From the UHGV virus genome UHGV-0364865: DNA of 16,820 nt. One strand, given 5' to 3'. Made by a program: the position numbers and the translations under genes. Below the pieces are notes generated by a model. The model searched no databases. It was not told the DNA's origin and saw only the letters and a program-made list of their open reading frames with translations. Source of the DNA: a virus. Shown here in pieces: positions 12,075 through 15,544 of the stretch (positions are counted from its first letter, which is position 1; the number at the start of each line of letters is the position of its first letter).

Positions 12075-13043
12075 ATGAGTGAAGTAACAGATTTAGTTGT
12101 TATTGAAAAAGCAAATGCAATGACTGTATTTCAGTCTTCCGACCAGATTGAAGAAATCCTTCAAAAGGTTGAACGTGAAGTTATGTCCTTTGTGCCTGAT
12201 ATCACAACGGCAAAGGGCAGAAAGGAGATCGCTTCTCTGGCGTATAAAGTTGCGCAGACGAAAACATATCTCGATGGTCTTGGCAAAGACCTTGTTGCTG
12301 AACTGAAGGAAATTCCAAAGCTAATTGATGCCAACCGCAAGACAGTGCGTGATCGCCTTGATGAGCTGAAAGCCAAGGCACGCCAGCCTCTTACTGATTA
12401 TGAGGAAGAACAGGCGCGGATTAAAGCCGAAGAAGAAGCTAAGGCAGCAGCTGAAGCTCTCGCAAAGCAAATTGAGTCTGACCATGAAATAGCGATTTTG
12501 ATGGATCGCGAATTTGACCGCCAAAGAGAAGAGGCAAGACTCAAAGCGGAGCAGGAAAAGCGAGAGCATGAAGAACGATTAAAAAGAGAAGCTGAAGAGA
12601 AAGCCAGAGCAGAAGCCGAAGCAAAGGCAAAAGCCGAAATTGAAGCAGCAGCAAGGCGAGAAGCAGAAGCTAAGGCCGCAGCAGAACGTGCAGAGCGTGA
12701 ACGCATTGAAGCCGAGCAACGAGCACAGCGCGAAGCAAAAGAGGCAGCAGAACGAGCTGAAAGAGAAAAGCAGGCAGCAATTGAAGCAGAACGCAGAAAA
12801 GCACAGGAGGAGGCTGAACAAATCCGTCGCGATGCTGAAGCAAAAGAGCAAGCCAGAATAGCAGAAGAAAAAAGAATCAAGGACGAAGAAGAGCGTAGAG
12901 CAAAGGATAAAGATCACCGGAAAGAAGTAAATAACAAAATACTTGCTGACCTTATCAAGGTTGGCGCATCAGAAGATGTTGCTAAAAATATCATAACAGC
13001 CATCGTAAAAGGCGAAGTATTCGCAACAAAAATAACCTACTAA
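12075..13043 (+). CDS. Hypothetical protein with a long, highly charged E/K/R/A-rich central helical region
   Basis: 322-aa ORF with strong SD AAGGAGG; about 120-aa N-terminal region, about 150-aa central segment made almost entirely of E, A, K, R, Q (predicted single alpha-helix or coiled coil), and about 45-aa C-terminal region; antisense ORFs across it are low-complexity artefacts. Confidence 0.65.
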   Translation: MSEVTDLVVIEKANAMTVFQSSDQIEEILQKVEREVMSFVPDITTAKGRKEIASLAYKVAQTKTYLDGLGKDLVAELKEIPKLIDANRKTVRDRLDELKAKARQPLTDYEEEQARIKAEEEAKAAAEALAKQIESDHEIAILMDREFDRQREEARLKAEQEKREHEERLKREAEEKARAEAEAKAKAEIEAAARREAEAKAAAERAERERIEAEQRAQREAKEAAERAEREKQAAIEAERRKAQEEAEQIRRDAEAKEQARIAEEKRIKDEEERRAKDKDHRKEVNNKILADLIKVGASEDVAKNIITAIVKGEVFATKITY

Positions 13044-13491: not shown

Positions 13492-13590
13492 TGGTGACCG
13501 CGAAGGAATGCGGGTATGCCTTAATTTGTCCCGAGTCGAAGTATTAAATCAGCGTTATTTCCTTGGGCCGTGTCCATTCTGAGGTGAATT

Positions 13591-14298
13591 ATGGATTTGA
13601 ACAAATTCGATGAGCCATTCAGCCCTGAAGATATCGAATGGCGAATACAGCAAAGCGGTAAAACACGCGATGGCAAGGTGTGGGCTATGGTGCTGGCTTA
13701 TGTCACGAACCGGGCAATCATGAAACGCCTGGACGATGTTTGCGGCAAAGCAGGATGGCGCAATGAATACCGCGATATTCCCAACAACGGCGGAGTTGAA
13801 TGCGGCATATCAATCAAGATTGATTCCGAATGGGTAACCAAATGGGATGCTGCTGAAAACACGCAGGTAGAAGCCGTCAAAGGTGGTCGTTCCGGTGCAA
13901 TGAAGCGTGCTGCCGTTCAGTGGGGAATCGGTCGGTATCTGTATAACCTTGAGGAAGGTTTCGCACAAACATCTCTCGATAAAAAGCAGGGGTGGCACAG
14001 GGCAAAACTGAAGGATGGAACAGGATTTTACTGGTCCCCTCCATCGCTGCCGGGATGGGCAATCCCAGCATCAGATAACAAACCATCACCAGAAAATACC
14101 AACCAGAAATCTCCATCGGTTGACTGCGAACAAATCCTGAAAGACTTCAGCGATTATGCGTCAACAGAAACTGACAAGAAAAAACTCATCGAGCGTTATC
14201 AGCGTGACTGGCAATTAATGGCTGGCAACGAGGAGGCGCAGGCTAAATGCGTTCAGGTAATGAACATCAGAGTTAACGAACTAAAACAGGCGGCATAG
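13591..14298 (+). CDS. Single-strand annealing protein, Rad52-like (Sak-type) N-terminal region with a separate C-terminal domain
   Basis: 235-aa ORF with SD GAGGTG; sits directly upstream of ssb in the early-left operon, in the position occupied by recombination genes in lambda; N-terminal region resembles Rad52/Sak annealing proteins (from memory); C-terminal ~70 aa looks like a separate, possibly Erf-like, tail. Confidence 0.5.
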   Translation: MDLNKFDEPFSPEDIEWRIQQSGKTRDGKVWAMVLAYVTNRAIMKRLDDVCGKAGWRNEYRDIPNNGGVECGISIKIDSEWVTKWDAAENTQVEAVKGGRSGAMKRAAVQWGIGRYLYNLEEGFAQTSLDKKQGWHRAKLKDGTGFYWSPPSLPGWAIPASDNKPSPENTNQKSPSVDCEQILKDFSDYASTETDKKKLIERYQRDWQLMAGNEEAQAKCVQVMNIRVNELKQAA

Positions 14299-14805
14299 AT
14301 GGCAAGCAGAGGCGTAAATAAGGTGATTATCCTTGGTCGGGTAGGACAAGACCCGGAAGTTCGATACTCACCATCAGGAACAGCGTTCGCTAACCTGACA
14401 ATAGCCACGTCAGAACAATGGCGAGATAAAAATACTGGCGAGCAAAAGGAATTGACTGAATGGCATCGTGTTGCTGTATCCGGGAAACTGGCTGAGGTCG
14501 TGGGGCAGTATGTGAAAAAAGGTGATCAGATTTATTTCGAGGGAATGCTGAGAACCAGAAAGTGGAAAGACCAGTCAGGGCAAGACCGTTACACAACCGA
14601 GGTTCATGTCGGAATTAATGGCGTGATGCAAATGCTTGGCAGCATTGGCGACAGCAAACAACAAGCAGCCAGCAGGCAATCACAGAAGCCACAGCAGCAA
14701 TCATCACCAGCACAACACAACGAACCTCCGATGGATTTTGACGACGATATACCCTTTGCACCAGTAACTCTCCCCTTCCCTCGTCACGCTATTCACGCAA
14801 TTTAA
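14299..14805 (+). CDS. ssb: Single-stranded DNA-binding protein (SSB) with a C-terminal extension
   Basis: 168-aa ORF; N-terminal OB-fold region close to E. coli SSB ([18 protein letters not shown]....TEWHRV..GKLAEV...[18 protein letters not shown]); the canonical tail [11 protein letters not shown] is present but followed by 15 more residues ([15 protein letters not shown]) before the stop. Confidence 0.9.
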
Positions 14806-14818
14806 TCAGGAGAAAATC

Positions 14819-15115
14819 ATGCCAGCGCCTCAGTATGGTGCGGATGACCCGCGCCGCTGTTCCGGTAATTCCGTATCGGAGGTGCTGGATAAATTCAGGA
14901 AAAACTACGACCGGATAATGTCGCTACCGCAGGAAACGAAAGAGGAAAAGGAATTTCGCCATTGTATATGGCTTGCAGAGAAAGAAGAACGCGAGCGAAT
15001 TTACCAGACATCAATCCGACCATTCCGCAAAGCCACATATACCAACTTCCCTGAATATATCGACCCGCGCCTGCGTAATTACCGCTCACGCTATGGCGCT
15101 ATCAGTAATGACTGA
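14819..15115 (+). CDS. Hypothetical protein
   Basis: 98-aa ORF with SD AGGAGA upstream. Confidence 0.5.
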
Positions 15116-15125
15116 GGAATTTACC

Positions 15126-15293
15126 ATGAGAGGACTTGCATACAATCCCGGCATTCTTCCGGCAGAAATGATTATTCGCCAACGCGTAAAGCCAATGCCA
15201 TCGAGAGAGGAATTGCTTAAGAGAAAGAGTTTCGGTTCTGTTAACGACAACAGATATCTGAATGCGACGTGGCGCAAAGGAGGCAACCAGTGA
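15126..15293 (+). CDS. Hypothetical small protein (55 aa)
   Basis: Start placed at the ATG at 15126, preceded by SD GAGGAA; the tracked 106-aa ORF would overlap the upstream gene by about 140 nt. Confidence 0.4.
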
Positions 15294-15544
15294 GTAATTC
15301 AGCACGACTACAGCTTGGTTTTTCACCGCTATCAAAAACTATCATGCTGGCAAAAATGCGCGATGTTGAAGGTGGACGTATGCGCGTTGGCAATGATCCA
15401 GGTCGTGATGTTACCAATGAGGCTGCTCAATTGGTGTGGCGACTGGTCATGGCTGAAGGTGGTGAGATCGCGTGGGAGCTGGATGATGGTTCTCGCATGG
15501 TGTTGAAGGCAGAAAAGCAGGAGGCAACCAGTGAGCAAGATTGA
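15290..15544 (+). CDS. Hypothetical protein (84 aa, GTG start)
   Basis: GTG at 15290 preceded by AAGGAGG with a 6-nt spacer and overlapping the upstream stop (GTGA). Confidence 0.45.

Follow-up and report, generated by a model that had tools for sequence, protein, structure and literature searches.

In Escherichia coli, the C-terminal tail of SSB (single-stranded DNA-binding protein), known as SSB-Ct, is a docking hub for ExoI, RecO, RecQ, PriA, chi, DnaG and others, and the free C-terminal Phe of its acidic tip is central to bacterial genome maintenance, with more than a dozen enzymes docking there. The present analysis concerns an ssb gene in the virus genome UHGV-0364865, a stretch of 16,820 nucleotides (hereafter the window) which is a lambdoid prophage. 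The encoded SSB shares with E. coli SSB the OB-fold (oligonucleotide/oligosaccharide-binding) family, a disordered linker and an identical 11-residue tip, but unlike in E. coli the tip is internal, has no Phe alpha-carboxylate and is followed by 15 residues which give the protein a new hydrophobic C-terminus. This extension of the SSB tail is undescribed in the literature searched, and may together with the tip constitute a composite docking signal.

Tails shared between replication proteins are known from phage T7, in which the SSB gp2.5 and the primase-helicase gp4 have common acidic C-terminal tails that end in Phe and contact the T7 DNA polymerase. Similarly, the primase/helicase of Seunavirus-type phages has the tip-plus-extension tail that related phages bear on their SSB-like protein, and in phage Bas52 both the SSB-like protein and the primase/helicase end in tip-like tails (DDDIPF and DDETPF, respectively). 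The occurrence of the same tail on both kinds of protein suggests that one tail may serve several fork proteins. Unlike the T7 tails, these have a different sequence, and in the extended forms the aromatic residue is not terminal. As the extended tail is also found in polymerase-less lambdoid prophages and on a plasmid, a common partner cannot be a phage polymerase.

Among lambdoid phages, the SSB of HK620 ('SSB-2') carries a tail, NDYPPF, which is needed to stimulate the cognate annealase Sak4 (Hutinet et al. 2018, PMC5928155). Like the HK620 protein, the window SSB belongs to a phage recombination (Rec) module, and the HK620 case is one of a C-terminal tail mediating a specific partner interaction; it differs from the window tail in its sequence, in ending with a free Phe and in having its partner encoded by a neighbouring gene. 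A survey of lambdoid Rec modules (Genome Res 2025, PMC12315714) names the type to which the window gene belongs 'SSB-1', describes it as experimentally unstudied and makes no mention of the extension. The SSB-1 prototypes, Sf6 gp27 and ES18 gp48, are encoded like the window SSB in a module of single-strand annealing protein, SSB and Abc2, but are free-tip forms interrupted by an endonuclease gene. Free-standing HNH homing endonuclease genes with conserved codons of essential genes as their targets are known from phages. The endonuclease family concerned here (PHROG 2340/1035), putatively of the homing type, resembles these in being polymorphic between near-identical genomes and in occupying one conserved coding site, and differs from usual homing genes in that the endonuclease starts within the extension codons or reads through into them.

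A last system of relevance is Bas52_0087, a Vequintavirus SSB-like protein and trigger of the DRT10 defence, for which the FDDDIPF tip has been noted and the extension is not discussed (preprint 10.64898/2026.04.29.721553). Bas52_0087 is free-tipped and appears to belong to the SSB-like family of the carriers in phages Kashira and Bas50, and its Bas50 orthologue carries the extension plus an endonuclease gene; the text of the preprint holds no per-phage data for a comparison of Bas50 with Bas52. Full-text literature on phage and plasmid SSBs, the sliding clamp, retron and defence triggers and ssb homing endonucleases gave no description of the extension, and papers on DARNA, Hna and F-plasmid SSB translocation held nothing relevant to it.

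The window SSB and its internal tip

The window ssb (14299..14805, + strand), of the lambdoid SSB-1 type, runs from an ATG through 168 codons to a TAA, and its product begins MASRGVNK and continues for 15 residues after Phe153. Residues 1-114 (14299..14640, +) constitute the OB-fold ssDNA-binding domain, identified by PF00436 (residues 6-104, E 1.5e-36), by AlphaFold2 (AF2) modelling and by identity to E. coli SSB. Among solved structures the best matches are SSBs of enterobacteria, with chain 1eqq_A of E. coli SSB (197 bits) among them. With an E. coli SSB sequence that is consistent with these matches in the Protein Data Bank (PDB), 153 residues align at 56% identity, which rises to about 70% within the OB fold. 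A Q/S-rich, intrinsically disordered linker follows (residues 115-142; 14641..14724, +), which has no conserved column in an alignment of 47 homologues at 67-89% identity to the window protein. The acidic tip (residues 143-153; 14725..14757, +) is the same as the last 11 aligned residues of E. coli SSB, and the extension (residues 154-168; 14758..14802, +) is, as judged from translation and the comparisons below, a conserved mobile C-terminal module. The protein has the features of bacterial-type SSBs (OB fold, disordered linker and the acidic tip D-F-D-D-D-I-P-F), and it departs from them in that the tip is not at the extreme C-terminus with a free Phe alpha-carboxylate. A sequence-only reading of this DNA had described an E. 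coli-like SSB with an intact, internalised tip, 15 further residues and a TAA at 14803-14805, which is confirmed by translation, PF00436 and the match to 1eqq_A. It had also proposed that the next gene has its own Shine-Dalgarno sequence, and such a sequence (AGGAG, 14808-14812) is indeed found between the ssb stop and the abc2 ATG at 14819-14821 (14803..14821, +).

When modelled by AF2 with the 47-sequence alignment, the OB fold reached a predicted local distance difference test score (pLDDT) of about 80-89. Residues 115-168 remained at 29-39 (29-50 in the linker) both without and with the 47 homologues, and the extension was left undocked on the OB fold. With these residues at about 30 in two runs, docking of the extension in cis was rejected, the runs being of the monomer and having no bearing on binding in trans. 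Predicted disorder of this kind is what a short linear motif would be expected to show. An RNA element beneath the extension was likewise rejected, as an Rfam scan of positions 13500-15500 gave no RNA family there and a single chance, sub-threshold match lies elsewhere.

Distribution among phages, plasmids and chromosomes

The plaque-forming lambdoid phages HK75 and mEp235 have a 507-nt ssb encoding the full 168-residue form including the extension, and the HK75 protein is 99.4% identical to that of the window. Of the 120 best-matching protein clusters (Klebsiella, Salmonella, Citrobacter, Enterobacter, Kluyvera and E. coli), some 105 end in 15 extra residues of the same pattern, far more than chance would give, and a tblastn search with the tail alone retrieved 204 phage records at at least 80% query coverage (210 with a second variant as query). 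The recurrence of extended-tip SSBs among relatives, which the sequence-only reading had anticipated as a possibility, is borne out by these clusters and some 200 phages. The phages are lambdoids, rV5- and phi92-type myoviruses, Vibrio phages and a T1-like phage, among others. Tip plus extension is also present, with a query coverage of at least 80%, in about 125 plasmid records, that of the IncN plasmid pTR4 among them, and the 109-nt DNA of tail plus junction is present in 409 of 5426 complete E. coli genomes. A scan of genomes that each represent a species listed 80 loci encoding the tip; 75 of these end exactly at IPF, presumably with housekeeping ssb genes among them, and the extension-like tails among the loci listed belong to Sodalis, Proteus, Trabulsiella, Chimaeribacter and Rheinheimera, all Gammaproteobacteria. 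When all protein representatives were searched with the tail of 31 residues, there were 14 matches, mostly gene fragments, the query being too short for that library.

The carriers are ssDNA-handling proteins of gammaproteobacterial mobile elements and have unrelated bodies, namely those of canonical SSB, of two further SSB-like scaffolds and of a primase/helicase. SSB-like carriers include a 413-residue protein of Serratia phage Kashira, the phi92 gp156-type protein (315 residues, encoded beside the DNA polymerase gene) and a 155-residue protein of mEp554, and the extension is also borne by the SSBs of the T1-like phage ECH1 and of Vibrio phages. The carrier of Citrobacter phage Omnitron has the tail alone in common with canonical SSB. 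In the Seunavirus phages KE23 (locus L009, 524-2578) and GAP31 (L094, 515-2572) the DNA primase/helicase bears tip and extension; the window encodes no primase/helicase with a tip. The pTR4-type IncN conjugative plasmids, of about 41 kb and from E. coli, Klebsiella, Enterobacter, Raoultella and Salmonella, encode the carrier SSB in their leading region. The pTR4 gene (L263, 2005-2538) lies near anti-restriction and SprT-like genes and is followed by a terminator and by no endonuclease gene; 13 of the 15 extension residues are kept, and eight of the matching codons differ synonymously.

Some further observations concern unusual tails and records. Among the primase/helicases of the Vequintavirinae, the SSB-like tip reads DDDTPF or DNDTPF in Seunavirus, where the extension follows it, and DDETPF in Bas52, where its end is free (L092, 12613-14691). 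Two tail copies per genome were found by tblastn in GAP31, Seu621 and Mydo. Divergent extension variants with the C-terminal half alone occur in Trabulsiella (LGHGYGICRKAIYAIS) and Chimaeribacter (IGFGYDCSRVAIHAL) (L185 and L187), and two IMG/VR loci have an unrelated 15-residue tail, RDTFARGARTAYACS, after the tip. An odd carrier of 120 residues (P0122) has an Ead/Ea22-like N-terminus joined straight to linker, tip and extension, and another (P0132) is a 51-residue open reading frame (ORF) with scarcely more than tip and extension; both may be deletion products or miscalled genes. Five records of about 137-146 kb labelled 'Campylobacter phage' (MG065645, MG065647, MG065655, MG065656 and MG065690) have a tail as in E. 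coli phages of the rV5/phi92 type, and their host labels look doubtful.

Sequence conservation and selection on the extension

In all carriers the extension is fused straight to the tip and forms the extreme C-terminus, following the pattern A-P-[IV]-[GT]-L-x-[YF]-P-x-H-x-I-x-x-[IL]-COOH. The consensus over 37 distinct tip-plus-extension peptides is A-P-[IV]-[GT]-L-[PQM]-[YFH]-P-[RNK]-H-x-I-[HYN]-[AVS]-[IL], and the length is exactly 15 residues in 130 of 136 extended tails. Residues A154, P155, L158, P159, F160, R162, H163 and I168 are at least 90% conserved in the 47-sequence alignment. For the 37 distinct peptides, the nucleotides of the extension have entropies of 0.94, 0.71 and 1.56 bits at codon positions 1, 2 and 3, respectively; A1, P2 and L5 show no or almost no variation, although their third positions are near saturation. 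The ratio of nonsynonymous to synonymous divergence (dN/dS) in 84 distinct genes for canonical SSB with extension, none of which had a downstream endonuclease gene by a crude motif check, is 0.12 in the OB fold, 0.33 in the linker, about 0 in the tip and 0.28 in the extension, these being aggregates of pairwise values from surveys that are redundant and phylogenetically non-independent. Such statistics indicate that the extension is under purifying selection as a peptide in its own frame. The most constrained segment is the tip, with a proportion of nonsynonymous differences (pN) of 0.017 among the 84 carriers.

Divergence at four-fold degenerate sites, used in place of the Nei-Gojobori (NG86) proportion of synonymous differences (pS), which is not comparable across regions of differing codon degeneracy, is, over gene pairs, 0.38 in the extension, compared with 0.68 for the Pro codon of the tip and 0.70 for the OB fold. 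A synonymous divergence about half that of the gene body suggests that the extension has been exchanged separately from it, with a breakpoint at the tip/extension boundary, or alternatively that an extra constraint acts at the DNA level. The extension is gained and lost as one unit, exactly at this boundary. Tip-only alleles encode no extension past the stop in any frame, except in copies fused to an endonuclease, and a mere stop-codon polymorphism was rejected on this account.

Proposed role of the extended tail

The fixed length, the conserved sequence, the hydrophobic end and the constrained tip favour a composite motif over a passive cap. That tip and extension form one docking tail of about 23 residues with altered partner choice is the interpretation preferred here, although we stop short of calling it probable; readings of the extension as a mask, an endonuclease passenger, a degron or pro-peptide, or a clamp ligand all rank below it. 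The extension would remove the free alpha-carboxylate of the tip Phe and offer a length-fixed hydrophobic C-terminus instead, and in doing so would change the set of proteins that the tail brings to SSB-coated ssDNA. Host SSB clients that depend on the carboxylate would dock less well or differently, a contact that is new or tighter could be made with a partner already in the host cell, and the ssDNA of the mobile element would obtain a client set unlike that of DNA coated by host SSB. Arg132 of RecO anchors the carboxyl end of SSB-Ct, and its mutation abolishes binding (PMC3152348). With the Phe carboxylate gone in the extended SSB, canonical docking should be altered.

The gene neighbourhood offers no phage-encoded partner. 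In the sample of loci compared, which is phylogenetically non-independent, no class of neighbour separates extension alleles from tip-only alleles, the extension is unlinked to any one cluster of upstream annealing proteins, and both forms occur in two SSB families. As no phage neighbour tracks the extension, as Bas50 gained or kept it together with an endonuclease gene and nothing else, and as the carriers range from polymerase-less prophages and a plasmid to large lytic phages, a host protein shared across the Gammaproteobacteria is the likeliest partner. The extension is accessory rather than essential, since the viable sister phages Sf6, ES18 and Bas52 have free tips, and this status fits a role in host interaction or in relation to defence.

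Several points weigh against a composite docking tail. The free-tipped phages just named show that the extension is dispensable for viability, and its dN/dS of 0.28 means looser constraint than in the OB fold or the tip. Its low synonymous divergence suggests that part of the similarity across carriers reflects recent horizontal spread and not long-term constraint, and, given the link with a selfish endonuclease described below, the benefit may fall to the endonuclease rather than to the SSB. A PDB sequence search with the tail matched the tip alone, with LHC matches at chance level, the motif occurring in no solved structure.

A more specific and more speculative version, which we regard as unlikely, is that mobile elements hijack the SSB hub, the extension turning the promiscuous tip into a selective and possibly inhibitory ligand for one host SSB client while the homing endonuclease spreads the motif among genes that end in the tip. 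Candidate clients would be an SSB-stimulated ssDNA exonuclease (ExoI/SbcB or RecJ) or a helicase; 3'-ended ssDNA would then be shielded, and its perception by defence systems that sense SSB or guard SbcB (DRT10, Retron-Eco8, Hna, DARNA) could be changed. 

Whichever version applies, a large, selected family of phage and plasmid proteins which keeps the tip and yet caps it implies either an unrecognised reading of the tip as an internal motif or a deliberate re-routing of the SSB interactome by mobile elements. The extension is relevant to phage recombination and to recombineering tools that co-express phage SSBs, to the early establishment of conjugative resistance plasmids such as the IncN pTR4 family, to how defence systems distinguish phage from host SSB, and to homing endonucleases as possible movers of a protein-interaction motif across unrelated genes. 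Natural comparisons are available in HK75 versus Sf6 and in Bas50 versus Bas52, the Bas52 protein being a known defence trigger.

Unlikely as well is the simpler explanation that the extension is a passive mask of unimportant sequence, which merely removes the free Phe carboxylate and so prevents recruitment of host clients such as ExoI, or poisons mixed tetramers. The dependence of tip docking on the terminal carboxylate (PMC3152348) agrees with a mask, as does the occurrence of the extension on proteins of mobile elements when 75 of the 80 listed tip loci end at IPF. ExoI might plausibly act on the 3' ssDNA ends that phage recombination intermediates and transferred plasmid strands possess, and the free-tipped Bas52_0087 is genetically linked to DRT10 immunity controlled by SbcB/ExoI (preprint 10.64898/2026.04.29.721553). 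However, a mask needs neither a fixed length of 15 residues nor conservation of A1, P2, L5, the aromatic residue at position 7, I12 and a hydrophobic C-terminus, and a tip that had been switched off should decay, while the tip is in fact the most constrained segment. The sequence-only reading had suggested that an internalised tip could fail to recruit host partners or poison the host SSB interactome. Altered client interaction is plausible in the light of RecO Arg132, whereas a cap that simply buries or poisons agrees poorly with the fixed length, conserved sequence and constrained tip.

An HNH endonuclease at the tip/extension boundary

In the survey of close relatives, each SSB that stops at IPF (Sf6, ES18, L066, L086 and others) directly precedes an HNH endonuclease gene of the PHROG 2340/1035 family, which has no Pfam match. 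In the Sf6-type arrangement (Sf6, L010 1100-2062; also L066, L067, L070 and L086-L089; compare window 14755-14821), the HNH gene (PHROG 2340) separates the SSB tip from the extension precisely at their boundary. The free IPF end is there restored by a TAG stop, the sequence TAGGAG doubling as the next Shine-Dalgarno sequence. In Sf6 (gp26) and the L066- and L086-type loci, the endonuclease bears the extension at its own C-terminus, where E[AE] precedes the last 14 residues, and is followed by the same abc2 junction as in the window. The family profile match ends about 15 residues short of the endonuclease C-terminus in these fusions, so that the extension is extra to the endonuclease. The sequence-only reading would have been contradicted by relatives with a stop right after IPF; such relatives exist, but an HNH gene follows in each of the close relatives surveyed, and in the Sf6, L066 and L086 types the extension is found on the endonuclease. 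An old annotation of Sf6 had recorded '14 contiguous amino acids identical to E. coli SSB' and left them unexplained.

A second arrangement is seen in Bas50, mEp554, KE23, GAP31 and ECH1, in which the endonuclease ATG lies within the extension codons in another frame (L093 2544, L007 about 2553, L009 2559, L094 2562 and L095 2059). The starts are in the +2 frame and at three different places, at the Q-Y-G, H-A and Y-A/V codons, and the extension TAA is re-read inside a [C/Y/S]-K pair just ahead of the first zinc-finger Cys of the endonuclease, in a conserved overlapping-gene register. The Vequintavirus phages Bas50 and Bas52, both of the BASEL collection, differ at the end of the SSB-like gene by one unit: extension plus endonuclease gene take up 652 nt in Bas50 (Bas50/DrSchubert, L093 2524-3175), as compared to 12 nt with a free tip in Bas52 (Bas52/RudolfGeigy, L092 22205-22216), with flanks 92-99% identical. 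The endonuclease is accordingly polymorphic for presence among relatives, both here and between window/HK75 and Sf6, L066 and L086, and the same family is also found after tip-only SSBs without extension (L158, L172 and L173). The family hidden Markov models (PHROG 2340/1035) gave no match at E <= 10 in the whole window, which is an 'empty' allele for the HNH cassette. We infer that the endonuclease family uses the conserved tip/extension coding site as a landing pad, and that the extension was probably helped by homing with co-conversion to reach any gene that ends in the tip.

These findings raise the possibility that the extension is a part or the homing site of the HNH cassette and has been copied by homing and co-conversion into tip-ending genes, where it outlasts the endonuclease and has little or no function for the SSB. 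The Bas50/Bas52 unit, the starts within the extension and the insertion between tip and extension in Sf6-type phages all agree with a passenger, as do the halved four-fold-site divergence with its break at the boundary and the spread to unrelated bodies with the tip as sole common part. Against this, 125 of the 130 carriers surveyed have no downstream endonuclease gene, and the canonical SSB genes free of endonuclease still vary most at third codon positions, with a dN/dS of 0.28. The best-conserved residues, A1, P2, [IV]3, G4 and L5, lie upstream of every endonuclease start, and the three different start positions look as if a pre-existing conserved peptide had been exploited. The IncN plasmid copy is heavily recoded and is followed by a terminator and no endonuclease gene. 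A passenger is on these grounds judged improbable, as one step down from a mask. The narrower notion that the conservation is a shadow of the overlapping endonuclease start and N-terminus was rejected on the codon entropy, the 125 of 130 carriers and the plasmid copy, together with Vibrio phage V039C, in which the conserved Tyr is encoded by TAC and so provides no overlapping endonuclease ATG.

Less favoured explanations

A signal for degradation or processing, either a C-terminal degron of the ClpXP, Lon or FtsH type, made up of the non-polar C-terminus (...AIHAI, ...IYAL) and an adaptor-like segment ahead of it, or a pro-peptide clipped so as to expose the tip, which would limit or time a host-like SSB, is very improbable. 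The fixed length, the invariably hydrophobic last residue and the natural module boundary exactly after Phe would suit it, and the ClpX signal of MuA, RRKKAI, ends in A-I as does the window extension. The window C-terminus reads R-H-A-I-H-A-I and those of other carriers YAL, HVI, HCF or NII, which, set against the ClpX degron classes ssrA (LAA-COOH) and MuA (a basic cluster with A-I/V-A after it), include no LAA-type end. The conserved N-terminal half of the extension is not known to match any degron, and there is no obvious reason for the primase/helicases of lytic myoviruses to bear one.

Sliding-clamp binding hexapeptides such as QLSLPL (Hda) and QLVLGL (Pol IV) follow a Dalrymple-type consensus (QL[SD]LF or QLxLxL) and are often C-terminal, and the segment P-[IV]-[GT]-L-[PQ]-[YF] could by analogy link SSB-coated DNA, or the phage helicase, to the host beta clamp. 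By pattern match alone, hydrophobic residues stand at motif positions 2, 4 and 6 ([IV]3, L5 and [YFH]7 of the extension) and Pro at 5. The defining Gln at motif position 1 is, however, Pro in 33 of the 37 distinct extensions and never Gln, and a motif of 5-6 residues does not account for nine other conserved residues or for the extension being always joined to the acidic tip, which makes a clamp ligand less credible still than a degron. A sequencing or assembly error, lost stop or frameshift peculiar to the window has next to no chance of being correct, with the 168-residue form in HK75 and mEp235, the tail DNA in hundreds of complete genomes and codon statistics that confirm coding; the view of the sequence-only reading that no frameshift is involved holds for a conserved and selected extension present in plaque-forming phages.

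Gene neighbourhood of the window

The window encodes a Q antiterminator, a KilAC antirepressor, a DnaB-type helicase, an O-like initiator, an S24 repressor and N. In its early-left recombination module, the order is a Rad52-type annealing protein, ssb and abc2, followed by DUF2737 and Ead/Ea22 genes. The gene for the Rad52/Rad22-type single-strand annealing protein, which is Sf6 gp28-like (13591..14298, +; PF04098, E 5e-26), lies directly upstream of ssb, its stop abutting the ssb ATG, and its counterpart in the near-identical EC19 prophage is annotated 'Rad52/Rad22 family DNA repair protein'. The anti-RecBCD gene abc2 (14819..15115, +; PF11043, E 3.8e-61) is the last member of the Rec module. 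In mEp235 a gene for a 182-residue DnaQ/Rv2179c-like 3'-5' exonuclease (L002, 2315-2863) is inserted between abc2 and an ssb with intact extension, as it is in many close relatives of the window (47 IMG/VR loci); the window and HK75 are without it. Upstream of cIII/kil, the window has an ORF of 322 residues (12075-13043, +) with no Pfam match, the EC19 counterpart of which bears the PGAP label 'cell envelope biogenesis protein TolA', in what looks like a mislabel caused by low complexity.

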